Both the position numbers and the translations under genes were made by a program. From assembly GCA_046154185.1 (NCBI GenBank), contig JBJXGE010000003.1:21144-85143 (forward strand): DNA of 64,000 bases, given 5' to 3'. Every line of letters starts with the position of its first letter. The stretch's first letter is position 1. Positions 14,062 through 56,454 of the stretch are shown in pieces. Below the pieces are notes generated by a model. That model did no database searches, was not told the DNA's origin, and was given only the letters and a program-made list of their open reading frames with translations. The stretch is from Planctomycetota bacterium (GTDB lineage Bacteria; Planctomycetota; UBA8108; UBA1146; JAJFFE01).

Positions 14062-15045
14062 ATGCGCAGAATCGCGTTACTCCTGCTTTCTATTGCCGGC
14101 CTGATGACCGTTGGACTGTTCACGCGTGAGGCCGCTGCTCAGCTCGCGTACCCGAGTGGCGTCGAGGACTTCGAGTCACTCGTCGTCGGTGACAGTGTCG
14201 TCTCCATCGGTTGGATCGTCGTGAGCACGAGCCCGATGCCGAGCGACTTCGCTGTGATCGGCGCAACTCCTGGTTTCGCTTCCGCCACAGCAGTGCGCGT
14301 CGTCGACGTCGATTCCGGCGATGTGCAGAATCGTTTCTACAGTCCCGGCCTCCAGGCGCCCGTCGAATCAAATTACTCGTGGAGTTGGTATGTGAACTTT
14401 GAAACGCCGCCGCCGGGTGGTACTGCGGTCAAACCGCGGCTGACGATCCAGCACTTTGGAGTTGGATTCGTGAATTCCTGGGGGGTCGAGTTCGCGGACG
14501 ATGGCATGCGGTTGGTCGTCACCGGCAACGGCGGCCCGGCGGGTAGCGTGTTGCTGAACGGGCCGCCGGTCCTCGGGACCTGGCATCTGGTTGAGTTGTC
14601 GGTGGACTTCGATGCGGACACCGTGACCGCCGCGATCGATGGCGGCGTGCCCGCTTCGCTACCGATTGCGCTCACAGGTGATCCGACGCTCTTCCGCTTC
14701 TGTTATCGCGGTGAAGGCGTCGGCAACGTTGCGACTTTTCTCGTCGACCGGGTTTCGGTGGTCATCGATGAGGCGCCGAATTTCGTGCGCGGCGACTGCA
14801 ACAACGATGGCGGGAACGACATCGCGGATGCGGTGTTCGGTCTGAGCTTTCTGTTCAGCGCCGGTGCGGCCCCGGACTGCTCCGACGCGTGTGACGGAAA
14901 CGATGACGGCTCGCTCGACGTCGGGGACATGATTTCGATTCTTAGCGCGCTCTTCGGTGGCGGCCCACCGCTTCCCGCACCGAACTCATGTGGCCCGGAT
15001 CTAACTTCCGATTCTCTGACTTGCGATGCATTCAGTGGCTGTTAG
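14062..15045 (+). CDS. Secreted LamG/ConA-like jelly-roll protein with a C-terminal dockerin-like Cys-tail module
   Basis: AAGGA SD. Signal peptide MRRIALLLLSIAGLMTVGLFTREAAAQ. C-terminal FVRGDCNNDGGNDIADAVFGLSFLF...DGNDDGSLDVGDMISILSALFGGGPPLPAPNSCGPDLTSDSLTCDAFSGC, ending in a stop codon. Confidence 0.75.
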   Translation: MRRIALLLLSIAGLMTVGLFTREAAAQLAYPSGVEDFESLVVGDSVVSIGWIVVSTSPMPSDFAVIGATPGFASATAVRVVDVDSGDVQNRFYSPGLQAPVESNYSWSWYVNFETPPPGGTAVKPRLTIQHFGVGFVNSWGVEFADDGMRLVVTGNGGPAGSVLLNGPPVLGTWHLVELSVDFDADTVTAAIDGGVPASLPIALTGDPTLFRFCYRGEGVGNVATFLVDRVSVVIDEAPNFVRGDCNNDGGNDIADAVFGLSFLFSAGAAPDCSDACDGNDDGSLDVGDMISILSALFGGGPPLPAPNSCGPDLTSDSLTCDAFSGC

Positions 15046-15222
15046 CCCGTAGGACTCGCTCGGCAACTCGAAACCGGGGTGGGCCCACGAACTGCCCGCC
15101 CCGGTTCGCATGCCAGGGACCTGTGGACGTCCGTGTGAGGGAGTCGGGAGCAAATCGAGCCACCCGTTCCGTCCCGCAAGCGGGTGGCTCGATCGCAACC
15201 GTCAGAAGTCGTCGGCCGGTTG

Positions 15223-18200
15223 TTAGGGAACGATCGTCACCGTCCCGCAGTACTTGTCCGTGGGAATCGCAGTGCCGGATGTCCCCGTCACCACTGTCGC
15301 GACCGGACCGGCGCCGCCTCCGCCGATCGTGTCACAGAAGCACACGTCGGTTGTCGATCCTGCAACTCCGAGAATCGAGTAGTGCGCACGCAGAATCCAG
15401 TAGCCGGCGCCGGGCGGAAGCGAGTCGACGCCGATGAAATCGACAACGACTCCCATCGTGACGCCGTCACCCGGAATGACATCGACCACCGTCAGGTCGG
15501 CTGGCATACCGCCCGAGAGTACGCCGGCCAGCGAAATCGCCTCCGCCGTCGTGATCTCGATCACCGCTGAATCGTGGCAGACGCCGAAAGACCAACCCCC
15601 TAACGCCGTGTCCGTGTCGAGCACGATGTCGATCGAGACCGCCGAACCCTGCGATCCCGTCGCGTCGGTCAGCAGCACCGCTGGTCCAGCGCCCATATTG
15701 ATGATCCCGACGTCCGTGTAGCCACCGACGACTGGCGAAGAAACCTCGACCAATGCCTGCAGAGTCTCGCTCCCGCTCACAAGGCTACAGAGCAGCTCGA
15801 GTGTCGTACCTGTAAGCTCGACATCGACGATTTGGAATTGACCAGACGCCGCGGAAACGGCGCTGAATGCGGTCCCGACTACACTGATGGAGGCGCCGGG
15901 AAGCGGCGCACCGCTCGAAAGCATCGTGAACCCGACGATCGTGGTGCGCGGAATCGCCGGAATGATGCGAACAACGATCGACGCCAACGCGCCGTTGTTG
16001 GTGCCGCTAATCAGCACGAAGCCGGGATTGAGGCCGGCTACCAAGCCGGTTGGCGACACCGTCGCGATGGCGGAATTGGAAATGCGATAGGTCGTGCACG
16101 GATCGCTCGAGAAATCCGCCAGACTGCCGTCCGCAAGTTCTCCCAAGAGTTCGAGCTGCGCCGTATCCCCGACTTCGATGATGCCGTAGGACGGAGTTCC
16201 CGGCAGCCGCGAAAACTTGAGCGACTCGGGGATGGGCGGCGGATCGGTCGAGACCGTCATCCCTTGGACATCGATGGTCTGGCCTTGCGCGATCCGGAAT
16301 GGGCTGCTTGTCGCGTAGTAGCTAACACCGCCCACCGTCTTGGTCGCAATGGCCCGCACGCAGTCGTCGCTGACGAAATCGGGCGGCGACCCGGGTCCGC
16401 TGGGACCAAATTGGTCGGGCGCGGAAACGTTGCGGACCTTGTACGTGCCATGTGTTCCGATCTGCGCGCTCTGGCCGTTGACGACAACTTGCCAGGTTTC
16501 GTCGAGCACGACGCGCGGCGGTGGCTGTGTCGCCCAAAGCTCGATGCCATCCGTGGTGCCGTCGTCGTCCGAGTCTTCGTCGAACGGCAGCGTGCCGAAC
16601 AGCCGCTCCTGAATGTTGTTCAAGGAGTCGCCATCTTGATCGAGCATCGCGTCGGCCGAATCGGTGGGGTCGAGTCCAACCTCTATTTCCCAGTCGTCCG
16701 GCAGGATGTCTTCGTCGGCATCCGGGTACATCGGCGGCGGCGGTCCACCGCCCGAGCCGAGCGCGAGCCCGCCGCATTCTTCGCATCGACACGCTTCGTC
16801 TTGCGCCGACGAGAAAGCTCCAAAGCCGCCGACAGCGACGGCGGCGGCATAGATCGCCGCTTGAATCGAGCACACTTCGAAGGGCGGCAGGCCAGGTGTG
16901 AATTGGCCGGCGCAGATTCCCAAGAGATCCAACAAGAAAATCCCGTCGCAAGCAAACTTGGCAGTGAGCGCGCCGCACGCGCAAGTGCCGTAACAAATAT
17001 CGTGCGTGTCGCAGGCGGGCGTGAAGCACACCTGCCACACGAATACGTACGGGCACTCGGGCACCAGGCCTGCCGCCCATGGCGGATCGGCCGGACCGCA
17101 GCCGTTCGGCTCCGGCTCGTACTTGCAGCACTCGCCGGTCGCCGCATACGGCGGGCAATTGCAACCCCAGCCCGCGATGGTGAGGCCGGCGCCCGGATCG
17201 CTATTGATGAAGGCGCCCTCGGCATCGACGGTGCCGGCGCTGACGATCTCGAATCGATTGTTGATCGGGTTATAGCTCAAGAAATACGCGATCGAACCCG
17301 GTGCGAGTCCGGAGAAGTTCGGGTAGCGGATCGAGAGCGGCGGATCAAAGTGCGCACCCGCTGGCTGCAGCGTCCAAGCAAACGGCGGCGCCGCGCCATC
17401 GGGAATCGGCATTGGGACGTTGTCGTGGTGCACAGCGTTGAGCGACAGCGGCACGCTATTTCCGGAACCGGTCGCCACGATGGTTCCGTTCGGCAAAGTA
17501 ATTTCTGTTTCTGCGGCGACCAAGACTTCCAATCCATCAATGCCGTTTACCGTGAGTACGACATCTTGGCTGCCATCGAACTGTTGCACGTTCAGCGGAT
17601 TTAGCCGCGGCAACAATATCGGCTGCGGGAGCGTGTTTTCGGCGTTCGGCACCAGCACGACCAGATACCCGATCGAGGGGAACGTGCCGATCGCGACACT
17701 TTGGCTGCCGGCCGTGGTCGCGGTGGCGCCGTCGATGAAGAGCTGCCCGGAGCCCGCGCTCGGAACTTCGCTGAACTCGAATTGGCCGTCCGGACTGGTG
17801 GTCGTGAGTAACGTCGATGCTCCGACAGTCAAGCTGCAGGTCGCACCGCCAATCGGCTGCTGCGCGTTGTCGAGTACTGCGCCGTGAAAACTCGTCGGAC
17901 GATCAAAGTCGCGAGCAATTCCGTAGATGGTGAAAGTCGCGACCTTCGACATATCGCCGCTGAGGCGCACATCGACGACGTTGACTCCCGGCTGTGCGCC
18001 GGCCACAAGAACCGCTTCCGCGTGGCCGCTCGACATGGTGAGAAACGGAAAACTTGAAAGTCCATTGATCGTGCCGCCGCCTTCGACGACTTGGTAGACG
18101 ACCGCATAGTCGCTGACTCCGTTGACCCCATCTGACACCCATACGCGCAGCGGCAGCGGCACCGGTGCGCCGGCTTCGACAAACTGGTTATTACCATCGC

Positions 18201-19485
18201 CGATATTTATCTGCGTCGCGGTGAGTGCGACGCCGCTCGCGCAAAAAACCGCGGCGCCGAGCACATCGGCCGACGTCGCGATCACGCGATTGATGGCCTG
18301 GCCGGCGGTCGAACCGATACCCCAGCGCGCGCTGGCGAAGCCCGCCGCGTCGGTGAAAACGGTGAACGTTTGCGCGCCAGTGGCCGCACCATCCGCATTC
18401 AGCCAGCCGTTATTGCGGTCGATACGAAACTCGACCAGTTTGCCGACGAACGGCGAGCCATCGGACTCCAATAGCCGCACGGTGATCGGCGCCGGCAGCA
18501 TCGACCGCACCGGTCCGGACTGCGCGTCGCCGGAGAACAGCGTGAGTGTGGGCACGCCGGGCGGCGGAATCACACGCGTGACGGTGCGCGACACGGTCAC
18601 GGAGTTGCCAAGCGCATCGGCGCCAACGATCTGCAAAAGCGTCGGTGTGCCGAGCGCGAGTGGCACGCTCGCGGCGAGGAAACTTCCGGTCGTGCCGAGG
18701 CCTTCGTACACAGTCGCGACCACGCCGTTGACCGTGACTGTCATAGGCAGCACGCCGCTCAAGAGATCGCTGATGGTCCCCATAACCGCGATGGTTTCGG
18801 TGAGGACTTGCTCGTCAGCGAACGGGTATTGGACCGACACGACCGGTGGCTGAGTATCCTGAATGATCATGATCTGCGCCGGTGCGCTCGCGAGTCCATT
18901 TGCATCGAGCGCCGTGACGTAGATGTTATTCACAGAGTTTTCAAGCAGCGGAATGCCCACGGCGTTGAAGCTCCCGCCGACAACCGGCGCCGTGATCACG
19001 CCAGCAGGCGAACTCGCGGCAACCGTCACAGCGCCGGCCGCTGCTCCGGAAACGGTGATGGTGAATTCGTCGGTGAACTGAAACAGCGGATTGAGCGTCG
19101 GCGCCGGCGGCGGCACGGGATCATCGGGACACGCTGAACCAGGGCCCACGCAATCGAGCGCATCGGCCGTGAGATCGATCCCGCACGAACCGAAAGGCGG
19201 AGGTGGCTGCGGCCCCGCCGAGAAGAGATAGCTGAGCAAGTAAATGGCATCGGCGATATCGAGCGCGCCGCTGTCGTTGGAATCGAGCGCATCGCGGCAG
19301 GTGAGTGGTCCGGCGCTGAACAAGTAACTCAGACCATGGATGGCGTCCGCGACGTTCAAACTTCCGTCGAGATTGGCATCGCCTCGCTTGAAGGTCCAGT
19401 CCCCGCGCGCCGCAGTTGGCAGCGCCGCGCACAGTAGCACAGCAATCAAAAGAGCAGCGAAAAGCGCACGCGTCGAGTGTCGCAT
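15223..19485 (-). CDS. Giant secreted protein (1420 aa) with an N-terminal dockerin-like Cys-tail module, multiple Ig-like/Big_2 domains and a Cys-rich region
   Basis: ATG at 19485 with AGGAGG SD 8 nt upstream. Signal peptide. The module directly follows (FKRGDANLDGSLNVADAIHGLSYLF...DSNDSGALDIADAIYLLSYLFSAGPQPPPPFGSCGIDLTADALDC). Big_2-like segment near the C-terminus. Confidence 0.8.
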   Translation of the reverse strand: MRHSTRALFAALLIAVLLCAALPTAARGDWTFKRGDANLDGSLNVADAIHGLSYLFSAGPLTCRDALDSNDSGALDIADAIYLLSYLFSAGPQPPPPFGSCGIDLTADALDCVGPGSACPDDPVPPPAPTLNPLFQFTDEFTITVSGAAAGAVTVAASSPAGVITAPVVGGSFNAVGIPLLENSVNNIYVTALDANGLASAPAQIMIIQDTQPPVVSVQYPFADEQVLTETIAVMGTISDLLSGVLPMTVTVNGVVATVYEGLGTTGSFLAASVPLALGTPTLLQIVGADALGNSVTVSRTVTRVIPPPGVPTLTLFSGDAQSGPVRSMLPAPITVRLLESDGSPFVGKLVEFRIDRNNGWLNADGAATGAQTFTVFTDAAGFASARWGIGSTAGQAINRVIATSADVLGAAVFCASGVALTATQINIGDGNNQFVEAGAPVPLPLRVWVSDGVNGVSDYAVVYQVVEGGGTINGLSSFPFLTMSSGHAEAVLVAGAQPGVNVVDVRLSGDMSKVATFTIYGIARDFDRPTSFHGAVLDNAQQPIGGATCSLTVGASTLLTTTSPDGQFEFSEVPSAGSGQLFIDGATATTAGSQSVAIGTFPSIGYLVVLVPNAENTLPQPILLPRLNPLNVQQFDGSQDVVLTVNGIDGLEVLVAAETEITLPNGTIVATGSGNSVPLSLNAVHHDNVPMPIPDGAAPPFAWTLQPAGAHFDPPLSIRYPNFSGLAPGSIAYFLSYNPINNRFEIVSAGTVDAEGAFINSDPGAGLTIAGWGCNCPPYAATGECCKYEPEPNGCGPADPPWAAGLVPECPYVFVWQVCFTPACDTHDICYGTCACGALTAKFACDGIFLLDLLGICAGQFTPGLPPFEVCSIQAAIYAAAVAVGGFGAFSSAQDEACRCEECGGLALGSGGGPPPPMYPDADEDILPDDWEIEVGLDPTDSADAMLDQDGDSLNNIQERLFGTLPFDEDSDDDGTTDGIELWATQPPPRVVLDETWQVVVNGQSAQIGTHGTYKVRNVSAPDQFGPSGPGSPPDFVSDDCVRAIATKTVGGVSYYATSSPFRIAQGQTIDVQGMTVSTDPPPIPESLKFSRLPGTPSYGIIEVGDTAQLELLGELADGSLADFSSDPCTTYRISNSAIATVSPTGLVAGLNPGFVLISGTNNGALASIVVRIIPAIPRTTIVGFTMLSSGAPLPGASISVVGTAFSAVSAASGQFQIVDVELTGTTLELLCSLVSGSETLQALVEVSSPVVGGYTDVGIINMGAGPAVLLTDATGSQGSAVSIDIVLDTDTALGGWSFGVCHDSAVIEITTAEAISLAGVLSGGMPADLTVVDVIPGDGVTMGVVVDFIGVDSLPPGAGYWILRAHYSILGVAGSTTDVCFCDTIGGGGAGPVATVVTGTSGTAIPTDKYCGTVTIVP

Positions 19486-19746
19486 CACAGGCCTCCTCCT
19501 TTTCGCAAAATCCATCGTCGCCCAATACACGCCATGCAGGCCTGCGAATCGTAGTCAGCGCAGCAAAAACCTACAAGTCAGCGGTCAAAAGCCCGCGGCA
19601 ACTGAGCCCCAATTAGCTCGGTCAATCCACGCAAGATCTTGCTGCCACTGGCCGCCAAGACGGCGTATTGCTGCCGCGCCGTCCGCCGTCGCACGCGAGG
19701 CGCCGCGGGCGGCGCGAGTTAAGGAGTCAGTGTCTTCGGCGTGATC

Positions 19747-19780
19747 CCGACCCAGGGCCGCCGTCATCGGCTGCCCTGGG
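19747..19780 (-). terminator. Stem-loop GACCCAGGGC-(14 nt)-GCCCTGGGTC downstream of the beta-propeller gene
   Basis: 10-bp perfect inverted repeat. No U-tract. Shares the CCCAGGG/CCCTGGG core with the hairpin at 7299-7333. Confidence 0.35.
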
Positions 19781-19820
19781 TCGTTGCGAAAGACGAGTAT
19801 TGCTCGAGAGCGTCAAGCTC

Positions 19821-21686
19821 TCACTGCATGCATCCCGGCGTACTCACGCCGGGGTCGAGGCCGGGATTCGGGAAGGGTGGGGGCGGCGGCGCCATGGATT
19901 GAAACAGGTACGCGAGCAAATAAGTCGCGTCGGAGAGGTCGATCGCGTCGTCGTCGTTGGCGTCGATTGCGTCGAAGCACATCGACGGCGTGCCCGTGTA
20001 GAGGACGCGCAGTTGCTCGATGGCGTCCGAGATGTCTATCACGCCATTGCGATTCGCGTCGCCGCGCACGAACGGAGCCAAGTATCGGTAGGCGGCGAAC
20101 GCGGTCGCAGCGGCGCTCGCTTGCGACACCGTCACGTCGACGGCGCCGACGACATGCGCAGGTGCGGTCGCTGTGATCGACGACGCGGTCTGCATCGTCA
20201 CCACCGCGGACGCACCCCCAAAGACGACGGCGAGTGGCTGCGCGGCATCCCAACCGCCGCCGACAATTGTCACGCTGTTGCCGCCTGCTACGGCGCCGAA
20301 ACCGGGAGCGACGCTCTCGATGGCAAGAACCGGCACGGTGCTCAAGTAGGTGTACGCGGCAACCAAGGTACTGGCGCCGCTCGGCGCCTCGACGAGGACG
20401 TCGACGACGCTCGCGGTCGCCGCGGTCGGCGCAATCGCCGCAATATGCGAGTTGTCGACGATGCTAAAACTCGCCGCGTTCAATCCAAAGCGAACGGTGG
20501 AGGCCGCGCCGAGATCGCTTCCGAAGATGTCGACAACGTTGCCGCCCGCGACGGGTCCGCTGGTCGGCGCCACCGAAGTGATGACGGGCGGCTGCGTCAT
20601 TGGCCCGCCGGCGACGAACGCGATCGCCGACGGCGTCGACAACAACGCGCCCGCGTCGTCGAAGTACGGCCGTAGCTCGCCGAGGTCGAGCGCGTCGCCA
20701 TCCGCGTTCAAGTCTTCCGCGATGTAGAGTCGATCGAGTGTGCCATCCGCGAGCAGCAGACGGCCCGGCGCTATGAGCACCGCATCGTTCGGATCGTGAA
20801 CAATGGAACCGGCGGCGGCGCCGTCGAGAAACACTCTCGCCTCGCCAGGGTCGAGCGCATCTCCATCGCCGTTAGAGTTCAGCAAGTACAACACGGTGCC
20901 CGTGTCCTCGTCGATGACATAGACACCGCCCGCGGCATCGACCTGGAGCGCGTCGATGTCCGTCACCGGCACGCCGCCGGCGATCGAGTAGAAGATCGTG
21001 GCCTCGAGCGCATCCATCGCATCGCCGTCGCCGTTCAAGTCGGCGAGTCGAAACACAATGCCGAACGTGCTGTCGCCGACGTAGACGAATCCCGTCGTGC
21101 TATCGATCGCGATGGACTCCGGATCCGTGATCGGCTCGGCGGGCGAAAGCGCCGCTGAGTCGTAGAAGACGCTGAACTCGCCATCGTCGTTCGCATCGCC
21201 ATCGGCGTTGTTGTCGCGCATGCGCAAAATGGCGCGCACGGTTGTGCTGTCGTCACAGACGTAGAGCGCGCCATCGCTGCCGAACGCCATGCCGCCCGGC
21301 GTGCCGAGGTCGAGACCGAGCGAACTGTCATCGAAGAACACGGTAATCTCGCCCGCGTCGTTCGCATCGCCGTCCGCGTTGAGATCCTCGAGCGCGAACA
21401 CCGCGTCGAGCGTGCCGCCATCCAGCAGCAAGAGACGATTGCCGTTGTGGAGCAAGTGATTGGCGCTCGACAAGTCGGGACCGCTCGAAGTGTCATCGTA
21501 GTAAACCGACACTTCCGTCAAGGGTTCGATGCTGCCATCGCCATTCAAGTCGACGAGACGATAGACCACATCGTCCGTCGAGTCGGCGACGAACGTCACA
21601 TCCTGCGCGCGCGTTGGGCCCACGGCCGCGAGCAGGAAACTGAGCACGACGAGCGTGAGCGCTCTTTGAGAGCTGGCAAGAAACAT
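19821..21686 (-). CDS. Secreted FG-GAP-like Ca-binding beta-propeller protein with two IPT/TIG domains and a C-terminal dockerin-like Cys-tail module
   Basis: Signal peptide MFLASSQRALTLVVLSFLLAAVGPTRAQD. Repeated DLNGDGxxD / EDLNADGDANDxGE loops. IPT motifs (PVITSVAPTSGPVAGGNVVDIFGSDLG, twice). C-terminal FVRGDANRNGVIDISDAIEQL...DANDDDAIDLSDATYLLAYLF...PPPPPF. Confidence 0.75.
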   Translation of the reverse strand: MFLASSQRALTLVVLSFLLAAVGPTRAQDVTFVADSTDDVVYRLVDLNGDGSIEPLTEVSVYYDDTSSGPDLSSANHLLHNGNRLLLLDGGTLDAVFALEDLNADGDANDAGEITVFFDDSSLGLDLGTPGGMAFGSDGALYVCDDSTTVRAILRMRDNNADGDANDDGEFSVFYDSAALSPAEPITDPESIAIDSTTGFVYVGDSTFGIVFRLADLNGDGDAMDALEATIFYSIAGGVPVTDIDALQVDAAGGVYVIDEDTGTVLYLLNSNGDGDALDPGEARVFLDGAAAGSIVHDPNDAVLIAPGRLLLADGTLDRLYIAEDLNADGDALDLGELRPYFDDAGALLSTPSAIAFVAGGPMTQPPVITSVAPTSGPVAGGNVVDIFGSDLGAASTVRFGLNAASFSIVDNSHIAAIAPTAATASVVDVLVEAPSGASTLVAAYTYLSTVPVLAIESVAPGFGAVAGGNSVTIVGGGWDAAQPLAVVFGGASAVVTMQTASSITATAPAHVVGAVDVTVSQASAAATAFAAYRYLAPFVRGDANRNGVIDISDAIEQLRVLYTGTPSMCFDAIDANDDDAIDLSDATYLLAYLFQSMAPPPPPFPNPGLDPGVSTPGCMQ

Positions 21687-22399: not shown

Positions 22400-22417
22400 C
22401 AGCCCGCGGCGTGCAGC

Positions 22418-25242: not shown

Positions 25243-25398
25243 GACCGCAGATCCTAGGGCGCGCCCAGAGCATGGTCAAGCACCGACGCAAAGAGCCGTC
25301 GTTCCGCGGCAAGGAACCTTGAGCTTTGCACTCGCATGGGTTGCAATCGCGACTCGGTTTCAACCGGATCGATTTGCAAAGTGCCCGGAGGTGACGAG

Positions 25399-27333
25399 GT
25401 GACCGCGGATGCCATCTATAATGTCGTGCTCGGCACCGCCGGACACATCGACCACGGCAAGTCTTCGCTCGTTCGACAACTGACTGGCATCGATCCTGAT
25501 CGACTGCCGGAGGAGCAGGCGCGCGGTCTCACCATTGATCTCGGTTTTGCGCCGTTCGTCCTGAGCACCGGCGAGCGCGTCGGGATTATCGATGTGCCGG
25601 GGCACGAGCGCTTCGTCAAAAACATGGTAGCCGGCGCGACCGGCATCGACATAGTGGCGCTGGTCGTCGCCGCGGATGACTCCGTCATGCCGCAGACGCG
25701 CGAGCATATCGACATCATGACGTTGATCGGTGTGCGGCGCGGAGTGATTGTGATTAACAAGATCGACCTCGTCGAACCGGCGATGGTCGAGCTCGTCGAA
25801 GACGAAATTCGCGAGGCCGTGAAAGGTACTTTTCTCGACGGCGCGCCGGCGTATTACGTGTCGGCAACGACCGGAGCCGGAATACCGGAGCTGCGCGCCG
25901 CGCTCGAAACGCACTTGCGCGGTTTGCCGCCGCGCTCGACCGATGGCATTTTTCGGATGCCGATTCAACGGGTGTTTTCTGCGCACGGTCACGGCACTGT
26001 CGTGACGGGAATTCCGGTCAGTGGTCGCGTCGAGTTGCAGGATCGACTCGAAATTTTGCCGCTCGGTGTGACCGGTCGCGTGCGCGGACTGCAAGCGTAC
26101 AAGCAAACTGTGACGCAAGCGCGCGCCGGGCATTCGACAGCTATCAACTTGAGCGATGTGGATTTTCACGCGGTGCATCGCGGCATGGTGGCCGCCGTGC
26201 CAGGGTATTTCCAAGCGACCACGATGATCGAAGCGCGCGTGCGCGTGCTGGCGCATCTCGATCAGCCGGTGCGGCACCAAACGCCGATTCGCTTTCACAC
26301 GGGCACGGCCGAGGCGGCCGGCAAGATTTATTTGCTCGAAGACAAAGTCGTCGAGCCCGGCGCGGAGACCTATGCGCAGTTTCGGCTCACGGAGCCGATC
26401 GTCGTGGCGCCCGGCGATCGCTATGTGTTTCGACTCGAGTCGCCGATGATCACGCTCGGCGGTGGCGAGATCCTCGATCGCTCGGCGTGGCGGCTCAAAA
26501 CCGGGAAGGCGTACGTCGTCGAGCAACTGCGTCGCAAGGAGCAGGCGCTCGGCTCCGATTTGGAGTTCCTCGCGTCGCTCGTGGCCGAGACACCGCTCAA
26601 GATGATCGACGGCGCCGAGCTCGCGCGGCGCGCCGGCATGGCGGAAACCGAGGCGGCGAAGCATCTCGCGACCCTCGCGGAGCGCGGCGACCTGGTGCCC
26701 GTCAAGGGTGTGCAGCAATACTTGTCGCGCACAGGGCTCGAGCTCGCCGGAAAGCGCATCGAAGGTGCGCTCGACGAGTGCTATCGCAAATCGCCGTATC
26801 GTATTCACGTGCCGAAAGTCGAAGTGCTCGATGCTTGCCGACTCGACGCGGAATTTTGCGAGCATTGCCTCGCGAACCTAGCGAGCCGCGGCGTCGTGCG
26901 ACTCGAACGCGGCGGTCGGTTGTCATTGCCCGGTCGCGCGCTCAAGTTGAGTGGGGCGGAGCAAGAGGTCTACGATCTCATCGAGTCGACGTTTCGCAAG
27001 GACCTCCTCAATCCGCCGCGCCTCGACGAACTTGCTCAGCGCTCCGGTAAGCCGCTCAAGCTGCTCGAGAAGATGCAAGCGCTGCTCGTCGATCAAGAGC
27101 TGCTCGTGCGCCTCGCGCCCGATGTCGTGTTGTTGAGCGACGCGATCGACGGCGCCGCCGAAACGCTGAGAAAGTTGTTTCGCGATGAAGGCGCCTTCAC
27201 CGCATCGCGCGCCAAAGACGTCCTCGGCACCTCGCGCAAGTTCGCGATTCCACTCCTTGAATACTTCGACCGCCTGAAGATTACTCGCCGCCTCGGCGAC
27301 ACCCGCGAACTCGGCAGCGCGGGGGGTGGGTAG
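25399..27333 (+). CDS. selB: Selenocysteine-specific translation elongation factor
   Basis: GTP-binding domain ([32 protein letters not shown]), EF-Tu-like domains II/III and C-terminal winged-helix repeats. GTG at 25399 with GGAGG SD 7 nt upstream. Track start at 25336 also possible. Confidence 0.9.
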
Positions 27334-27495: not shown

Positions 27496-28041
27496 GTGGC
27501 TTGCGCAGACAGCAACAGAGATGAGAGCGATCGCCGCGCCGTCGCGGCGGCGCTCGATCACTGGCCGCGACTGCACGGTTTCGCCGCCGCGATTACCAAG
27601 GACTCGACGCGTGCGGATGATCTCTGTCAGACCGCCTACTTGCGGCTACTCGAACGCGCGAACACGATCGATTTCGACCGCCCGGTGCTGCCGCTGCTAC
27701 TAACCATCGTGCAGCGCGAAGCGGCGAGCGAGGCGCGGCGCGCGCGACCGCAGCCGCTCCCGGCTGACGACGGCGAGCGCGGGACGGCGCTTGTTGCCGA
27801 CAGCGGCGGCGAACCGTCCGAGTTGGCGGAGATCGCCGAGCGCCGAGTCGACATCCGCACGGCGCTCGAGACGCTGCCCGACAGTTGGCGAGCCGCGCTC
27901 TATCTCAAGGATGGGCTCGGCTGTTCCTATCGCGAGATCGGCGAAGTCATCGACGCGAGCTCCGACACTGTGAGGACCATGCTGCATCGCGCGCGTCGGC
28001 GCCTGCGAGCTCTTTGGACGGAGAGGACGGCGAGACAGTGA
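27496..28041 (+). CDS. ECF RNA polymerase sigma factor
   Basis: GTG start with AGGAG SD. Region 2 (DDLCQTAYLRLLERA) and region 4 (LPDSWRAALYLKDGLGCSYREIGEVIDASSDTVRTMLHRARRRL). Confidence 0.85.
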   Translation: MACADSNRDESDRRAVAAALDHWPRLHGFAAAITKDSTRADDLCQTAYLRLLERANTIDFDRPVLPLLLTIVQREAASEARRARPQPLPADDGERGTALVADSGGEPSELAEIAERRVDIRTALETLPDSWRAALYLKDGLGCSYREIGEVIDASSDTVRTMLHRARRRLRALWTERTARQ

Positions 28042-29165
28042 TGATCTGCGAGACCGTTGCCGAGCGACTGAGCGCGTATTTGGACCGCGAGCTCGATGCG
28101 CGCGAGCGCCTCGAACTCGATAGGCACCTCGACACCTGCGACGTTTGCCGGGCGGAGCACGAGGCCTTAGTTGCGCTGCGACATGCGACCGAGCAGCACT
28201 TTGCGCGACTCATCTCGTCGGCGTCGCGCGTCAGCGAGCCGGTTGCAACTCGTTGGTGTGAGCGGCGCGCGCGGAGCCCACGGCGCGCGCTCCGGTTCTT
28301 GAGCGGAATCGGCGCCGTCGCCGCCGCTGCCGCGATCGTCGTCATCACGCTCTACCCCGACTCACGGCTCGAGGGCAGCCCAGCGGAGCTGCTGCGCCGG
28401 GCAAGCGCGCGCTATCTCGCGCTCGCCGACGCGGAAGTGCGCCTCGTCGCCGAATCCGAAGCCCTGGAGGTATTGGGGAAATTGTTGGAGCGGAAACCGG
28501 CGAGCGAAGTCGGCGAGACCTCACCGGCCAGAGCCGGGGGTGACGACACGCCGAAAGCATTTCGAGTCATTCTCGGTGCGCCCAATCGTTTCTTGATCGA
28601 GCCGCTGGTCACGGGAGGCGTCGCGCTTCGCAGCGCCGATCTTTCGGGTTTTGATGGCCAAACGCTTTGGGAGTATCAACCGCAGCAGAATACCGTCGTC
28701 GTGCGCGGCGGTACCGAGCTACAAGCCGGCGGCTCGTTTGATCTCGGCTCCGCGGATTTCTTCGAGTTCCTCTCGTGGGGTTTCGTGCGCGAGATCAACA
28801 GTGCCGGCGACGATCTCGAAGTGATCGATGTCACGGGACCCTACGACCTGCGCGTCGGACGCCGCGTGTTTGAACTCGATCTTCGGCGCGGCGCCGCCGA
28901 GCGCGCGGCGGCGCCCGGTGCAGCGCCCGGCTGGCTCGCGATGCGGGTGCGAGTGTTTGTCGATCCGCGCGCGGACTTGATCGAGAAAGCCGTCTTCGAC
29001 GTCAACTTCGGCGGACTGAGTCTCGTGACGCTGCGCGCAGAACTGGTGTCGCTCGATTCAGGACTCGATCCGGCGGTATTCGATTTTCGGAGCCACGTGG
29101 GATCCGGAGTGCGAGTGGTGAGAGCCGACGACAAATCGGGCGCTCCGGCGCCCAAGCGCGAGTAA
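28041..29165 (+). CDS. Anti-sigma factor, zf-HC2 type, with periplasmic LolA-like/DUF4367-like domain
   Basis: ATG at 28041 overlaps the sigma stop (TGATG). N-terminus MICETVAERLSAYLDRELDARERLELDRHLDTCDVCRAEHEAL. TM segment FLSGIGAVAAAAAIVVITLY. Confidence 0.7.
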   Translation: MICETVAERLSAYLDRELDARERLELDRHLDTCDVCRAEHEALVALRHATEQHFARLISSASRVSEPVATRWCERRARSPRRALRFLSGIGAVAAAAAIVVITLYPDSRLEGSPAELLRRASARYLALADAEVRLVAESEALEVLGKLLERKPASEVGETSPARAGGDDTPKAFRVILGAPNRFLIEPLVTGGVALRSADLSGFDGQTLWEYQPQQNTVVVRGGTELQAGGSFDLGSADFFEFLSWGFVREINSAGDDLEVIDVTGPYDLRVGRRVFELDLRRGAAERAAAPGAAPGWLAMRVRVFVDPRADLIEKAVFDVNFGGLSLVTLRAELVSLDSGLDPAVFDFRSHVGSGVRVVRADDKSGAPAPKRE

Positions 29166-39999: not shown

Positions 40000-40218
40000 C
40001 CCGAGTCGCGAAGCCAACTCCGCGAGATCGGCCGACGGAGCATCTTCCGGCGACACAACGCCCTGCTGTCCTCAGGACATTCCGCGCTTTTTGCGCGAGT
40101 TCTCGCCACTTGTGGGCCGCGAACGACGCTCGTCGCCGGATCGGCAGTTCGGGCGGTGCAACTCAGGTTTGTGAGGCGAGGGCTGAGCGACGATGGTGAG
40201 CACGCTCGGCCGCGCCGG

Positions 40219-41892
40219 TCACGGGCATACCGAGCTTGTGCAGGCGAGCGTATCCGGTGTCGGATCGGCGCCGCAGTCCGTGGGTGGTGGCAGCGGCCCC
40301 CGCAGGGCGAATAAGGCCGTGAGTTGCGCGATAGCGTCGGAGATGTCGAGCGCGCCGTCATCGTTGCCATCGCAGCTATCTGAACAATCGAGTAGCGGCA
40401 ACGCGCCGAACAGGTACGCGAGCAGCGTGATCGGATCCGCGATGTTGATGCCGTCATCGCCATTACAGTCGCCGCGCTGGAATGGGAGCGACGACTCGCA
40501 CTCATCGGGAATGCCATTCAGATTGATGTCGGGGCTCGCGCCACTGAGGATGTCCTGGGCGTCGCCCGTGCCATTCTGATTGCAATCGGTGTCGCCGATC
40601 CGCAAGTAGTAGACATCTTGCTCGCCATTGAAGGTCGCCGCGTAGGCGACGTCGACGCCGACGAGGTCCGAGACCATATCGTAGTAGTCGCCGAGCTTCT
40701 GCTGCTGCGGCCAACCGAGATGCGGATCGAAGGCGATGCTCAGCGCTTGATTCGGCGACCAGCTCAGCCCGGCATCGAGCGACGAGCTATAGTAAAGCTG
40801 CGACCAGAACCCGCCCGGATTGGCGCGCGTGTCGTTCCAAATAACATCGAGTCGACCGTTGGGCGCCACCGCGAGCGTGCCGAACCACTGCCAATCGTTG
40901 CTCCCGAGCGGATCATCGTTTATGCGCACCGGTGGCTCGAAGGAGACGCCGCCATTGGTGCTGCGCACCAGATGCACGTCGAGCGGGTCGCTGCCAGGCG
41001 GATTGACCGAGCAGAGCACGTACACATAGCCACGCGTCGGGCCGGAGCTGTGGTCGACATCAATCCAAACCTGCCCGAGCAGTCCTCCGGGGTTGGGCCC
41101 GCCACCGTATACGAGCGCGCCGCCAAGATCGACCACCGTCGCGAAGTCGAAGGCGAGCGCCGCTCCGGGATCTGCGATGGTCGTCGACTTCGCCACCACG
41201 AACTCGTCGTACACCGGCGAACGTCGCCCGGCGATGTAGACTTCGCCATCCGGGCCAACGGCGACGACACCCCACACCGGCTGCTCAGGGATCGGCACCG
41301 GAGGCTCAAATGTCGCGCCGCCGTCGGTCGAGCGATTGAACCAGTTGTCGCCGCAGCAGCCAGCATAGTCCCACGCCGCGTAGATGTTGCCGTGCCCGGG
41401 ACCGCCGGTGCGATCGATGGCGATCCAAGCTTTGTCGCCTCCGTAGGCGTCAACACCTGTGTCCCACGTCGCACCGCCATCGAACGAGCGGAAAAGGTCG
41501 CACGAATAGCCGCCGCCGGCGGTGGTCAGGCTGTGGTAGTAGATGACGCCGTTGGCATCCGCCTCGAGCACAGGATCGGAGCGAAACACGCCCGGCTCGA
41601 TCACGCCGGGAAAAGTCCACGCAAGTCCGCCATCTATCGAGTAACCCCAACCTGCTTGGCGGAAATTGCTGGCGACCGTGTCGAATTGGCGCCAGCCGAT
41701 CGCGACTCGTAGCGGATTGGTCGGATCGACGGCGATCGACGGCTCGTTCGCGGCATCGCCGATCGTATTCATGCCGGCAGCATCGACGTTTACTTGCACG
41801 CTCACGAAACCGCCGAAGATCGATTGCGCATTCAGACGCATCGAGACTGCCAACAATAGCAGAACGAGTAGCGAGATCGGAGTGTTTCGCAT
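40219..41892 (-). CDS. Secreted BNR-repeat (sialidase/glycosidase-like) beta-propeller protein with C-terminal dockerin-like Cys-tail module
   Basis: Signal peptide MRNTPISLLVLLLLAVSMRLNAQS. BNR motifs SIDGGLAW, SFDGGATW, STDGGATF, STNGGVSF, LDAGLSW. C-terminal FQRGDCNGDDGINIADPITLLAYLF...DGNDDGALDISDAIAQLTALF...PLPPPTDCGADPTPDTLACTSSVCP, ending in a stop codon. Confidence 0.8.
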   Translation of the reverse strand: MRNTPISLLVLLLLAVSMRLNAQSIFGGFVSVQVNVDAAGMNTIGDAANEPSIAVDPTNPLRVAIGWRQFDTVASNFRQAGWGYSIDGGLAWTFPGVIEPGVFRSDPVLEADANGVIYYHSLTTAGGGYSCDLFRSFDGGATWDTGVDAYGGDKAWIAIDRTGGPGHGNIYAAWDYAGCCGDNWFNRSTDGGATFEPPVPIPEQPVWGVVAVGPDGEVYIAGRRSPVYDEFVVAKSTTIADPGAALAFDFATVVDLGGALVYGGGPNPGGLLGQVWIDVDHSSGPTRGYVYVLCSVNPPGSDPLDVHLVRSTNGGVSFEPPVRINDDPLGSNDWQWFGTLAVAPNGRLDVIWNDTRANPGGFWSQLYYSSSLDAGLSWSPNQALSIAFDPHLGWPQQQKLGDYYDMVSDLVGVDVAYAATFNGEQDVYYLRIGDTDCNQNGTGDAQDILSGASPDINLNGIPDECESSLPFQRGDCNGDDGINIADPITLLAYLFGALPLLDCSDSCDGNDDGALDISDAIAQLTALFALRGPLPPPTDCGADPTPDTLACTSSVCP

Positions 41893-42397
41893 CGGTTGCC
41901 CGGGGCAAAGCGTCCTGCTAATCGAGGCGATTGTCAAGCAGCAGGCGGCGGCGACGAGGGACACAGGGCCAGCTCGATCATGATTCTCGGTACTTCCAAT
42001 CTGTCGAGGCTCCCTCGCCAAAAAGGGCGCCCGCCTGATCGGGGTCCATATTTTCTCGTCCTGGATCGAGAAGGCGGCAACGCGGGGGTTGCCAGTGAGG
42101 TGCGGAGACACTACCTTTACCTTTAATAAATTGCCGGAGGGCTCGGCGAACACGGGAATAAGTCAGGGATAGCGAGTCAGCCGCTTGAGGTGTCCCGGTG
42201 ACGATTTGATCGCGTGGGATCGGCTTGCCCCAGGCATAGAGAGCAGAAAAACATGCGCCATCCAGTCATTCTTTCCGGCAATCGCTTCACCTGAGTTACG
42301 GGGCCGAACCGTTCGGTCCCGCCTTATTGCTGAGCACTCGAGGGGGAAGAAGGAGTAGAAGAATCCGATAATTCACTGACGAGGAAAGTGGGAAACC

Positions 42398-44716
42398 ATG
42401 CGTGCACTCGTACGGAGATGCTGTGTTGGCTCGGCGGTTGTATTGCTGCACTCGCTTGTGATCGTCATCGCTGTGCTGTCGACCACATTGGCGAGCGGCC
42501 AATACGCAACGACTTTCGACGCGCTCTTGGGAGATGCTGACGGCGAAACTCTGGTAGGTCAGGACTCCTACTATAATCCTGTCCCAGCGACCAGCGTCCC
42601 AGCGCTCGTCTATACCTATGCCGGCAACGTTCTCGGCGTGCCGGTGAACCCCACTGGCGGCGACAAATTCGCGGCTGGTGTCGGACCAGGTGGAAGCGTA
42701 TTCATGCGCACACAGCGCGACCTGGCATTTGGCGCCGGCACCGGCATTTGGTCGATCTCCTACGATGTCTCGGTGTCATTCATTGGTACCTTGCCGACGG
42801 CTCAAAATGCCGGCAGCGTTTCCACGCAAACGTTCCCGGGCGACAAAACTTTTATCGCCCTCAGCACCTGGACTGATATCACTACGGCCGCGGCCTGGAA
42901 CGCAGACTACGTTTGGTTCAACGCGACGGGCACGCAGCTACAGGAAATCGTGCCAGACCCGGCTTTCCAAAACCTCGTCGCGAACCAGTGGTATCGTCGA
43001 ACAACAATATTTAGTCTCGACACTTACCAGATACTCGAGGTCAGAATCACCGATCTCACGACCGCCATCACGACGAGCTACTCGCCGCCGGATCGCTACC
43101 TGTTCGGCGGCACGGCCTTCGCGCCGCCGTGCGATGGTTACCGCATTTTTGCCGGTGCCGCAACTGTCGCGGGCAATGTCGTCGCGTATGACAATGTCGT
43201 GATCGAGCAGATCATTCCGCTCTGCGCACCCATTGCGAGCTTAGTCTGCAGCGTAGACTGCGGTGCCGGCACCGTCGCGTTGAGCTGGCCCGGTGGGGCC
43301 TACACTGCGATCGAGGTTGAACGCGACACCATCTTGATTTCCACGCTCCCCGGAGGCGCCACCGGATTCGTCGACAATCCTGGTGTTTCCGGTAGCTATT
43401 CGTATCTGGTGCGCGGCATCTGTGCAGGCGGACCGGCGCTTTCAGGTCCGGTTTGCAATGCAGAAATCGCGATCGGCGGCGTCCAAGAAAACATCATCTG
43501 GGCGGGCGAGTCGGCCGCTCAAATCGATAGCGTGGCAGCGCTTGATGCGGCGATGACTGCGGCCGGCCTCGCGCACACGGTAGTGGCCGATTTGGGCAAC
43601 CTACCGTGTGGCGCAACGCTCACGCCATCAAACCGCGTGTGGGGCGCCATGGGTAGCTTCCCCAGCAATCACCCGATTTCGGTGGCCGAAGGCATGTTGC
43701 TGCGAGACCACGTTTTGGCGGGTGGCCACGTTTACATGGAGGGTGGCGATATTTGGGGTTTCGATCCGGCCACCGCCTTCAATACGGTCGATGGGATCGC
43801 CTCTCCGGCGGTCGACGGCGGCGATGACTTCACCGCCATGGTCGGATCGAGCTACGATGACGCCCAGTTCGCGGGATTGAATGCTGCATACAACCAGGAC
43901 CAAGCGGGCAACGACTGGACCGATCAGATCGCCGCCACCGCGACTGACATGGCGGGACCGAACGCCGGCGTGGTTTGGAATCGTGACGTGGGCGGCGGAG
44001 TCGCGGGTTACGGCACGGGCGTTTTCCACGCCAGCGACCAGCCTTTTGGTCGGGTGCTCAACCAGTCGTGGGAGTTCGGCGGCTACGGCGGCGACCAAAA
44101 CGCGCTGATACTCGCGTATGACGATGCGCTCCGCCGAGTGGGATCGCCGAGCGACCTTACTTGTTCGCAAGTGGGGACCACGGGTTCGGTGGATCTCGCC
44201 TGGACCAACCCGCAGAACTACGACAGCGTCAACGTCTACGTCGACGGTCCGCTCTACACCACGCTTGGCCCGCAGGCGGCGGGTTCGGCGTCCGCAACAA
44301 TTTCCGGTCTGTCAGTCCCCGGAGCTCACACCATTTGCATCCAAGGTGTGGTCGCGGGCGAATTGTCGCGACAAGTCTGCTGCATGGTCACTTTGGTCGC
44401 CCCGCCGGTCGACCTGATCAAGGTCGCCGACATCAATGGCGACGGCGCCGTCAACGTCGCAGACCCGATTAACATCCTCTCCGAGTTGTTCCCACCCATG
44501 CCTGGCCCGTCAGGCGGGTTCATAACTCTGGCCGGATGCCCAGCGGGCTTCGACTGCAATGGCGACAACATGGTCAACATCGCCGACCCGATTTTCTTGC
44601 TCAGTTGGCTGTTCTCGATGGGGCCGCCGCCGCCGGCCTGGCTCGGCACCGTGCCAGCTTGCAACCCAGCGAGCCCGATCCTCGGCTGCTTGTTCCCGCC
44701 GACTTCCTGCGATTGA
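42398..44716 (+). CDS. Secreted large protein with FN3-like Cys-containing repeats and C-terminal dockerin-like Cys-tail module, hypothetical
   Basis: Signal/TM N-terminus. Two FN3-like segments. C-terminal INGDGAVNVADPINILSELF...DCNGDNMVNIADPIFLLSWLFSMGPPPPAWLGTVPACNPASPILGCLFPPTSCD, ending in a stop codon. This is the most divergent copy of the module. Confidence 0.7.
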   Translation: MRALVRRCCVGSAVVLLHSLVIVIAVLSTTLASGQYATTFDALLGDADGETLVGQDSYYNPVPATSVPALVYTYAGNVLGVPVNPTGGDKFAAGVGPGGSVFMRTQRDLAFGAGTGIWSISYDVSVSFIGTLPTAQNAGSVSTQTFPGDKTFIALSTWTDITTAAAWNADYVWFNATGTQLQEIVPDPAFQNLVANQWYRRTTIFSLDTYQILEVRITDLTTAITTSYSPPDRYLFGGTAFAPPCDGYRIFAGAATVAGNVVAYDNVVIEQIIPLCAPIASLVCSVDCGAGTVALSWPGGAYTAIEVERDTILISTLPGGATGFVDNPGVSGSYSYLVRGICAGGPALSGPVCNAEIAIGGVQENIIWAGESAAQIDSVAALDAAMTAAGLAHTVVADLGNLPCGATLTPSNRVWGAMGSFPSNHPISVAEGMLLRDHVLAGGHVYMEGGDIWGFDPATAFNTVDGIASPAVDGGDDFTAMVGSSYDDAQFAGLNAAYNQDQAGNDWTDQIAATATDMAGPNAGVVWNRDVGGGVAGYGTGVFHASDQPFGRVLNQSWEFGGYGGDQNALILAYDDALRRVGSPSDLTCSQVGTTGSVDLAWTNPQNYDSVNVYVDGPLYTTLGPQAAGSASATISGLSVPGAHTICIQGVVAGELSRQVCCMVTLVAPPVDLIKVADINGDGAVNVADPINILSELFPPMPGPSGGFITLAGCPAGFDCNGDNMVNIADPIFLLSWLFSMGPPPPAWLGTVPACNPASPILGCLFPPTSCD

Positions 44717-49195: not shown

Positions 49196-49207
49196 CGATT
49201 CGCCCTC

Positions 49208-54793: not shown

Positions 54794-54826
54794 CCGGGTT
54801 GAAGAGCGACGATCGGAGCGTGCGCA

Positions 54827-55320
54827 ATGACAAACTCACCGATCGACAAGGAACCGCCACGAGCCGGTGAGACAGGACCTGATCGTGCGAAGGACCGGGA
54901 GGGCCAGCACGACGAGGTCGATACGACGCGAACTGCGCCCAAACCCTCCGGCCCGCCATTCATGCCCGCCATTCCGACTCAAATCGGTCCGTATCGCATT
55001 CTCGAGAAAATCGGCGAAGGCGGAATGGGAGTCGTCTATTTGGCGGAGGAGCGCGGTGAAATCCGGCGACGCGTTGCCCTGAAGGTCATGCTTCCTGGAA
55101 TGTCGAACCGAAAAGTCATGGCGCGGTTCGCGAGCGAGCGTCAGACGCTCGCCATGATGAGTCATCCCAATGTTGCGAGAGTCTTCAACGCCGGATCGAC
55201 CGATGAAGGCCTTCCCTACTTCGTCATGGAGTATGTGGGTGGGCTCGCGCTCACGGCATATTGCAGCCTGAACCGACTTGACACCCGCGAACGACTCGCG
55301 CTCGTGAGCGATCACGATTC
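54827..55320 (+). pseudogene. 3'-truncated Ser/Thr protein kinase (N-lobe only, about 160 aa)
   Basis: Intact ATG with GGAG SD. Gly-loop and Lys ([20 protein letters not shown]...VALKV), hinge ([12 protein letters not shown]). Homology stops before the catalytic HRDLKPxN loop, exactly at the inverted repeat at 55305. The track ORF reads through into the opposite-strand gene. Confidence 0.7.
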
Positions 55321-55345
55321 TGCATGGCAGAATCGTGATCGCTCA
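55305..55345. terminator. Perfect 19-bp inverted repeat TGAGCGATCACGATTCTGC-atg-GCAGAATCGTGATCGCTCA followed by TTT; bidirectional terminator-like hairpin at the kinase breakpoint
   Basis: Read from the sequence. Lies 5 nt from the stop (55351-55353) of the convergent minus-strand gene. Confidence 0.7.
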
Positions 55346-55350
55346 TTTGG

Positions 55351-56454
55351 TCACGGGCACGGCGGAAAGGCGTCGCAGGTCAGCGCGCCGCTGGTGGGGT
55401 CCGCGCCGCACGCGCTCGGAGGCGGCGGCAGCGGCGCCCCGGCGACGAACAGCGCCGACAGCACCGAGACGGCATCCGCAATGTTGACACTCTCGTCGTC
55501 GTTGGCGTCGGCAGCTTGGGCGCATGGTAGGAATCCCATGCTGAACAGCCCGCTCAAGATGCTGATCGCATCGGCGATGTTGAATGTGCCGTCCGCGTTG
55601 GCGTCCCCGCGGCGGAACTCGTCTTGTACCGGGCCGGCTGTGAATGCGCCGCCCCAGACGAACAGCCCGCAATCGTAGTTGTCATCTGTGCTGTCTGCGA
55701 CTGCAAACTTAAGCGTGTTTGCGCCGGGCACGACTTGAGCCGTTGCGCTGAGATATCCCATGACGCCGAAGTAGTCCGGTGCGAGCGGATAGGCGTCGAG
55801 AACGAAATCCGGCGGCACGAAGGTGAAATCGCTCGACATCGCAATCACCGGGTTGCCATCAATCTTGAAGAGTCGTTGTTCGCCGTTGGCGAACACTGCG
55901 GCCACGTCGGGATAGGGCGACATGCCAAAACCGTACTCCTGGCTGCCATAGGCGGCGAGCAGCGAAATCTCTCCGGCGCTTGCCGAGTTGAACTCGATCA
56001 CCAGGCTCGAGGCATCGCCGGTGCTGGTGCTGAATCCAAACTCGCTGAGTAGCGCATCGAGATCGGCGTCGCCGGGTAGACCGAGCGAGCGGCCTGGAAA
56101 CGGGAAGTAACCGGGGAGCGTCGGCTGGATGTCGACGGCTCCGCCTGAGGTCAGCAACAAACCGGGCGGCTCGCCGGCGAAATATGTATCTCCCGGTGTA
56201 TACACTCCCGCACCGATCAGTGCGCCGGTGTACGTCACCGAAGTAATACTTATTCCGGGCGCGCTCACGAAGGCGAGTGTGAGCGCGAGATCGGTCGGCG
56301 TTGCTGTGGGAAGCGTCGTTACTGAAACGACGGGTTGCGCAGGCGCTGTGGAGACGAGTACGAGTCCCATTGCAAGCGCGAGCCCAAGACTTATAAGCCC
56401 CCGCCAACCGGCTGTGCGGCGTGCGCAGCACTCGAACTTTGTGAAGGCAAACAT
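55351..56454 (-). CDS. Secreted beta-rich protein with C-terminal dockerin-like Cys-tail module
   Basis: Signal peptide [42 protein letters not shown]-terminal [25 protein letters not shown]...[52 protein letters not shown], ending in a stop codon. Confidence 0.75.

Follow-up and report, generated by a model that had tools for sequence, protein, structure and literature searches.

Dockerin-like modules with a putative disulfide clasp and their probable cohesin-fold partners in exported proteins of a planctomycete

We analysed 64,000 nucleotides of contig JBJXGE010000003.1 of a Planctomycetota bacterium (assembly GCA_046154185.1, positions 21,144 to 85,143 of the forward strand), referred to below as the window. 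The window has a G+C content of 61-65%, and the source species is absent from the GTDB representatives. Seven genes, grouped in three clusters (14062-21686, 37561-44716 and 55351-56454), encode proteins that share one module of 83-99 amino acids (aa), a predicted dockerin with a cysteine-containing tail that we refer to as DocCys. All seven open reading frames (ORFs) have the starts and stops given in an earlier note made from the sequence alone, and each protein begins with a Sec-type signal peptide, as judged by eye. One of the seven proteins, which we call the adaptor, also ends in a predicted cohesin-fold domain, and we think it likely that DocCys and cohesins of this family together form an assembly system for exported proteins. 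Three window proteins are identical to NCBI records (MFN0056971.1, MFN0056968.1 and MFN0056996.1; locus tags ACKVX7_*) from a contig of 92,132 bp. Module residues are numbered after the 88-aa module of the gene at 37561-39999 (39733-39996). The genes and their main features are:

14062-15045, plus strand: putative secreted cargo protein, 327 aa, with a signal peptide, a passenger without an assigned family and a C-terminal DocCys (14782-15042) that has an extra C6/C36 pair
15223-19485, minus strand: adaptor-type protein, 1420 aa (MFN0056971.1, ACKVX7_00810, annotated as 'hypothetical protein')
19126-19392, minus strand: N-terminal DocCys of the adaptor, 89 aa, then a DDPVPPPAP linker (from the family and leave-one-out hidden Markov models, HMMs)
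15226-15696, minus strand: predicted cohesin-fold domain formed by the C-terminal 157 aa of the adaptor (from AlphaFold2, AF2, and Foldseek)
19821-21686, minus strand: putative secreted cargo, 621 aa, with Asp-rich propeller-like repeats, two IPT/TIG domains and a C-terminal DocCys (19824-20072)
37561-39999, plus strand: secreted M14 zinc carboxypeptidase, 812 aa (Pfam Peptidase_M14, E=2.1e-79), with additional beta domains, then DocCys at the C-terminus (39733-39996)
40219-41892, minus strand: secreted BNR/Asp-box sialidase-like propeller, 557 aa (Pfam BNR, E=1.6e-7), with a C-terminal DocCys (40222-40482) that has the extra C6/C36 pair
42398-44716, plus strand: secreted protein, 772 aa, with a passenger without an assigned family and a divergent C-terminal DocCys (44417-44713; leave-one-out E=4.6e-15)
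55351-56454, minus strand: secreted choice-of-anchor L protein, 367 aa (MFN0056996.1; NCBIfam NF038133, E=1.3e-15), with a C-terminal DocCys (55354-55617)

A six-frame search with an HMM of the seven modules returned only these seven matches within the 64-kb window (the next best has E=0.65). When one module is left out of the model, the remaining six regain it with E=1.7e-32 to 4.6e-15 and match nothing else among 1146 segments, so the modules align as one family, as had been claimed. The copies share 28-58% of their amino acids and 46-58% of their nucleotides. Thus, they are old paralogues. At such nucleotide identity, the repeats did not arise by recent duplication or gene conversion, nor are they an assembly artefact. 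The consensus proposed in the earlier note is essentially right. The exceptions are the module of 19821-21686, a short-tail subtype that lacks C70 and C87 (the first and third tail cysteines), and that of 42398-44716, in which an insertion of 8-11 residues separates the two loops. The same note placed a stop directly after the module. This holds for six of the seven copies, which terminate the protein 0-1 residues past the last Cys, and fails for the adaptor, where the module occupies aa 32-120 of 1420, immediately behind the signal peptide, with another 1300 residues to come.

The predicted structure of DocCys is that of a divergent type-I-like dockerin, with two 12-residue Ca2+-binding loops (D-x-N-x-D-G-x-x-[DN]-[IV]-[AS]-D) and a helix after each. 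The ligand pattern 1-3-5-9-12 is canonical in both loops, and the ligands (D5-N7-D9-[DN]13-D16 in loop 1 and D37-N39-D41-[DN]45-D48 in loop 2) are 90-100% conserved in an alignment of 127 module sequences, which also served for the AF2 model and for the cysteine counts. A profile of the seven modules matched type-I dockerins in the PDB over positions 3-58 (best match 2y3n_B, E=1.2e-5) and found no PDB coverage for positions 60-89. The AF2 model, a check suggested in the earlier note, has the dockerin fold, with a predicted local distance difference test score (pLDDT) of 96.6, a predicted template-modelling score (pTM) of 0.87 and helices at residues 14-26 and 47-58. The tail blocks are also confidently ordered in this model (mean scores of 95 and 93), and a beta-bridge links residues 31 and 81, adjoining C32 and C81. 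In a Foldseek search of the PDB with the model, the best 30 matches are all dockerins (probability about 1, root-mean-square deviation about 2 A), with template-modelling (TM) scores of 0.51-0.80 for the target and at most 0.63 for the query, and with 54-72 of the 88 columns aligned. Thus, the dockerin core is matched and the tail is not. The profile and structure matches together bear out the duplicated F-hand of type I dockerins that had been read from the sequence.

The module is not confined to this genome. A profile search of 5.8e9 proteins, in which 8000 candidates were scored, found at least 439 matches, nearly all annotated as 'hypothetical' or 'dockerin type I' and from metagenome-assembled genomes (MAGs) of Planctomycetota. 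Three carriers (P0019, P0338 and P0360) come from MAGs labelled 'Candidatus Poseidoniia archaeon' or 'Bacillota bacterium'. These labels look like binning errors, given that the remaining labels are uniformly Planctomycetota; horizontal transfer is the alternative. Two homologues (P0001 and P0002) have three F-hand repeats rather than two ahead of the Cys tail. Minimal homologues that consist of a signal peptide and the module only were also identified (P0099, 115 aa, and P0055, 124 aa), and proteins of this type could act as cohesin caps or competitors.

The passengers of the module are unrelated to one another, as the earlier note had recognised. Matches to M14 peptidase, BNR, TIG/IPT, Big_2/CarboxypepD_reg and choice-of-anchor L families were identified. 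The LamG-like and FN3 assignments made earlier for 14062-15045 and 42398-44716 are unsupported in Pfam and PDB sequence searches, and the passenger of 14062-15045 has no sequence match in Pfam, NCBIfam or the PDB. What defines the choice-of-anchor domains is their association with anchoring signals that can replace one another, and the presence of one such domain among the passengers fits an anchoring role of the module.

After the dockerin core, the module continues with a Pro-rich turn (G-x-P-P-P-x-P-[FY]-P) and a tail of the form C-G-x-D-P-T-x-D-x-L-x-C-x-x-[FY]-x-x-C-P. Among the Pfam, NCBIfam and PDB entries searched, none covers the tail. Literature searches on disulfide-containing bacterial dockerins returned nothing relevant. 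The cysteines occur in pairs. C32 and C81 are both present in 126 of the 127 modules. For C70 and C87, 106 modules have the two together and 17 have neither (four are discordant), and for the optional C6 and C36 the numbers are 18 with the two together and 105 with neither (again four discordant); the window copies with this third pair are those of 14062-15045 and 40219-41892. In a larger set of 243 full-length modules, used for covariation, Fisher tests give p=4e-46 for C6/C36 and p=9e-20 for C70/C87, values that are inflated by shared ancestry. Gain and loss of cysteines in pairs on exported proteins argues for disulfides, rather than for a four-Cys metal site or a single attachment site. 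Thus, we infer disulfides C32-C81, C70-C87 and, in some copies, C6-C36 from the covariation and the predicted model. The first of these would tie the tail to the linker between the repeats, the second would be a bond inside the tail, and the third, where present, would staple loop 1 to loop 2. The tail would then fold back onto the dockerin core, and this covalent 'clasp' would lend stability to a small domain that depends on Ca and works outside the cytoplasm.

The adaptor has, in order, a signal peptide, DocCys, immunoglobulin (Ig)-like domains, a Cys-rich phospholipase A2 (PLA2)-like region, an acidic thrombospondin type 3 (TSP3)-like region, Big_2, CarboxypepD_reg and the C-terminal cohesin. 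The AF2 model of the C-terminal domain, built from an alignment of 39 relatives, is all-beta with a pLDDT of 93.8 and a pTM of 0.88. Each of the best 50 Foldseek matches in the PDB is a cohesin (TM 0.72-0.79), with types I, II and III represented, and the best of them is 2vn5_C (E=1.3e-8, TM 0.72/0.76). On this structural prediction, the last 157 aa of the adaptor are a cohesin fold, a nine-stranded beta-sandwich (jelly-roll). The earlier note, which saw no partner of cohesin type in the window, is therefore incorrect on this point. An HMM of the cohesin family finds this one copy in the window (15226-15696), versus seven dockerins. The 39 aligned relatives have near-invariant residues W35, C40, H41 and D42 (motif GWSFGVCHD) and C121 (motif CFCD). 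This pattern suggests a conserved disulfide or functional site, which would be atypical of clostridial cohesins.

The middle of the adaptor has features of its own. The Cys-rich region (aa about 763-914; 16744-17199, minus strand) contains ACDTHDICYGTC, with a phospholipase-A2-like H-D-x-C-Y motif, and has sub-threshold Pfam matches to PLA2G12 (E=0.0086) and the prokaryotic Phospholip_A2_3 (E=0.088). If this assignment is real, the adaptor would itself be an enzyme. The following acidic, Asp-rich region (aa about 915-985; 16531-16743, minus strand) has thrombospondin-type-3-like Ca-binding repeats, and this stretch alone matched MAG loci from Heimdallarchaeota, Lentisphaeraceae, Kiritimatiellales and Poseidoniaceae (L005-L008). 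A scan of contigs with the adaptor identified relatives that are 37-43% identical and cover its middle region (residues about 2-1264), in Verrucomicrobiota/Limisphaerales MAGs (L001, L003 and L004) and in Phycisphaerales (L002). These four have no DocCys match and only one weak cohesin-like fragment. Thus, the passenger part of the adaptor exists apart from the docking modules in related phyla.

A word-index search with the cohesin domain gave a single protein (P0121), and exhaustive HMMER searching was needed to recover the family. With phmmer, 546 relatives (E<=1e-3) were found among 1.84e9 cluster representatives. Six of the 39 aligned relatives match Pfam Cohesin (best E=1e-5), and 16 of the 39 match Dockerin_1 (E<=0.1). 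Domain architectures were parsed for the best 151 of the 546. Most consist of a signal peptide (SP), one or more cohesins (Coh) and a dockerin (Doc): SP-Coh-Coh-Doc in 65, SP-Coh-Doc in 46, Coh3-Doc in 15 and Coh4-Doc in three, with a few mixed arrays. SP-Coh(1-4)-Doc is, judged from sequence, a scaffoldin architecture. The reverse order, Doc-...-Coh, occurs in two of the 151, the window adaptor and P0124. The dockerin is of the DocCys type in 138 of the 151 (about 91%), and this co-occurrence supports the earlier interpretation of the module as an anchoring or assembly tag.

One of these relatives, a Coh-Coh-Doc scaffoldin (P0180, ACKVX7_13320), is encoded on another contig of the same MAG. 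On an unrelated contig (L009), a stretch of 11 kb contains two Coh-Doc genes, a metallophosphatase with a C-terminal module and a third ORF that has a cohesin at its start and is cut short where the locus ends. Proteins with the order SP-beta-Big_2-CarboxypepD_reg-Coh and no dockerin (P0123, P0131 and P0142) are candidate anchors. A precomputed match to PF27529.1 is present on a Coh-Coh-Doc homologue (P0275), so one of these domains, perhaps the cohesin-like one, may already be described by a Pfam family of very recent date.

Other genes in the window include an 1808-aa bacterial alpha-2-macroglobulin (57173-62599, plus strand; MG2, bMG3, bMG5, bait region, TED and bMG10) that adjoins the choice-of-anchor L/DocCys gene, so that a protease inhibitor is encoded next to a group of exported hydrolases. 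The dockerin clusters are separated by housekeeping and regulatory genes, among them those for sigma-54, for SelB (the elongation factor for selenocysteine) and for a zf-HC2 anti-sigma factor (11362-12756, 25336-27333 and 27885-29165, all on the plus strand).

The interpretation that we consider likely, from sequence comparison and predicted structures, is a cohesin-dockerin assembly system for exported proteins in which the dockerins are disulfide-clasped. DocCys would plug Sec-exported proteins into cohesin-fold sockets. The sockets would be provided by the C-terminus of the adaptor (SP-Doc-...-Coh) in the window and by SP-Coh(1-4)-Doc scaffoldins such as ACKVX7_13320. The cargo encoded in the window would be the M14 carboxypeptidase, the BNR propeller, the choice-of-anchor L protein, the TIG/propeller protein and the two passengers without an assigned family; on contig L009 it would be the metallophosphatase. 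Together the parts would form a multi-enzyme assembly that is not a cellulosome and belongs to the type of the 'planctosome', a purely in-silico model put forward for Nemodlikiaceae (Phycisphaerae) (Andrei et al., 2019, ISME J, PMC6461901).

Several observations weigh against this interpretation. With Dockerin_1 (PF00404), the three highest scores among the window copies are 15.8, 15.4 and 14.7 bits, versus a gathering score of 22.9; relatives above that score are P0275 (29.8 bits) and P0307 (38.3 bits). Loop positions 10-11 (module residues 14-15 and 46-47) are I/V/L then A/S/G, replacing Ser-Thr, the canonical cohesin-recognition pair of clostridial dockerins. The C-terminal 157 aa of the adaptor have no Pfam match even at E<=10 and do not reach the gathering score of Cohesin (PF00963, 24.1 bits), and the only match by sequence to the PDB or Pfam is an insignificant one to the X-module of a scaffoldin. 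Structure prediction was needed, since the cohesin is undetectable by sequence alone. The proposed disulfides lean on covariation among sequences that are not independent and on a predicted model. No column discriminates the dockerins of scaffoldins from those of cargo (maximum Jensen-Shannon divergence 0.20). Hierarchy and specificity are thus ambiguous, and daisy-chaining or in-cis Coh-Doc binding is possible; a hierarchy like that of type I and type II dockerins is unsupported, as there is no class-specific column. The argument for export rests on the signal peptides, which would take the proteins at least as far as the periplasm, and no membrane or cell-wall anchor was identified. Finally, we infer rather than observe that the cohesins and dockerins bind each other, and the same applies to the location of the complex (cell surface or periplasm) and its anchor.

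The replaced Ser-Thr pair and the lack of a split between scaffoldin and cargo dockerins would also suit an orphan Ca2+ module that is dockerin-like and binds no cohesin. Such a module would stabilise its passenger or bind some other ligand, for example a glycan on the cell surface, a coat resembling an S-layer or a component of the outer membrane, and the cohesin-fold domain would be a separate beta-sandwich with a role of its own. Many non-cellulosomal dockerins have no demonstrated partner (PMC6461901). A variant in which cohesin and dockerin form a unit in cis gains some support from very short Coh-Doc linkers, for example of about 6 aa in P0121. We consider the orphan module unlikely. DocCys is present on 138 of 151 cohesin-family proteins, in tandem Coh arrays that are typical of scaffoldins, and dockerins far outnumber cohesins (seven versus one in the window). 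The two folds correspond to those of the partners in solved complexes, and cargo and scaffoldin genes are clustered on an independent contig (L009).

Two further explanations, both much less probable than an orphan module, concern the tail. One is a C-terminal secretion or sorting signal, perhaps cleaved, comparable to the C-terminal domain of the type IX secretion system, PEP-CTERM/exosortase, MYXO-CTERM or LPXTG, with the Cys tail as the site of processing or attachment. It would account for the strongly conserved C-P at the tail end, for the six of seven window copies in which at most one residue follows the last Cys, and for the presence of the module on a choice-of-anchor L protein, the usual place of such signals. 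We find it very hard to reconcile with a module that is N-terminal in the adaptor (19126-19392), N-terminal, internal or tandem in P0147, P0003, P0004 and P0119, and confidently predicted to be a folded dockerin domain. The sequence has neither a transmembrane helix nor a basic or hydrophobic tail, no NCBIfam model, those for sorting signals included, matches the module, and the cysteines vary in pairs, as disulfides would and a single attachment site would not. The other is a metal site (Zn or Fe), by which the module would be a metal-dependent switch. Four conserved cysteines within about 55 residues are compatible with this, but the carriers have signal peptides and hence are exported to an oxidising compartment. 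Moreover, the 17 natural variants lack exactly C70 and C87 yet retain C32 and C81, as expected of two independent disulfides, whereas such a loss would destroy a four-Cys site, and the third pair, C6/C36, comes and goes independently. A metal site is thus highly improbable.

A more ambitious form of the cohesin-dockerin interpretation is that DocCys and its cohesins are a widespread, so far unrecognised general-purpose assembly system of uncultured aquatic Planctomycetota. Scaffoldins would daisy-chain into branched, self-assembling enzyme networks at the cell surface or in an enlarged periplasm, and the clasp would adapt the connector to oxic, low-calcium waters. Daisy-chaining is conceivable because Coh1-4-Doc scaffoldins and cargo share a dockerin type. 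We regard this larger proposal as rather doubtful, if worth stating. If true, the cellulosome would have an aerobic counterpart in hosts of Gram-negative type, with peptides, phosphoesters and glycans as its targets.

To our knowledge, cohesin-dockerin assemblies are understood almost wholly from anaerobic cellulolytic Firmicutes, and elsewhere they are mostly orphan annotations. Here both probable partners can be identified, in proteins whose public records mostly read 'hypothetical protein'. What appears to be new is a disulfide-clasped dockerin subtype and a large, essentially unannotated family of cohesin scaffoldins in Planctomycetota. The modules at 39733-39996 or 19126-19392, set against the cohesins of 15226-15696 and P0180, provide a concrete pair for the hypothetical planctosome. 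The module HMM provides a signature for annotating the secreted or displayed proteomes of uncultured Planctomycetota, and a covalently clasped connector is possibly sturdier for protein engineering.

Type I dockerins of clostridia and ruminococci (PF00404; 2y3n_B, 4uyp_B, 4dh2 and 6kgf) share with DocCys the duplicated 22-residue segment, in which an EF-hand-like 12-residue Ca loop is followed by a helix. As in those dockerins, the repeats of DocCys are near-symmetric and the module is fused to unrelated secreted enzymes. DocCys differs by about 30 extra C-terminal residues with two or three probable disulfides, found in no solved dockerin searched, by [IV]-[AS] rather than Ser-Thr at loop positions 10-11, and by window copies that fall below the Pfam threshold. 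The host is a planctomycete of Gram-negative type, and the cargo is non-cellulolytic. Non-cellulosomal cohesins and dockerins are known.

'Planctosome' is a term rarely used in the literature, with six papers found to contain it. The model consists of an SP-dockerin-HYR-cohesin adaptor, an anchor with LTD, P-domain, TSP3 and cohesin, and dockerin-bearing M12B and M14 peptidases (Andrei et al., 2019). Compared by described architecture, it and the window are alike in the planctomycete host, the SP-dockerin-middle-cohesin adaptor, the M14-dockerin protein and the non-cellulolytic cargo. The earlier note, which left the purpose of the system open, thus overstated its novelty, as a model with an adaptor and an M14-dockerin was already published in 2019. 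The middle of the adaptor is HYR in the planctosome and Ig-like, PLA2-like and TSP3-like in the window, and neither the LTD/P-domain/TSP3/cohesin anchor nor an M12B reprolysin-dockerin is among the window genes. The planctosome paper mentions no cysteines or disulfides and no Cys tail, and mentions neither the SP-Coh(1-4)-Doc family nor the breadth of cargo (PMC6461901).

The adaptor scaffoldins of Ruminococcus flavefaciens (ScaA) and Acetivibrio cellulolyticus (ScaA), with tandem cohesins and a C-terminal dockerin, have the same SP-Coh(n)-Doc arrangement as 129 of the 151 best relatives, including P0180. The planctomycete Coh(n)-Doc proteins differ in that they lack an X-module, and there is no base scaffoldin with a sortase or SLH anchor. 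Unlike in the ScaA systems, the dockerin of the planctomycete scaffoldins is indistinguishable in type from those of the cargo. Some cellulosomal dockerins have an intramolecular 'clasp', formed by non-covalent stacking of the N- and C-termini. The clasp predicted here for DocCys resembles it in being a terminal extension that folds back, and would differ in being covalent and much longer.

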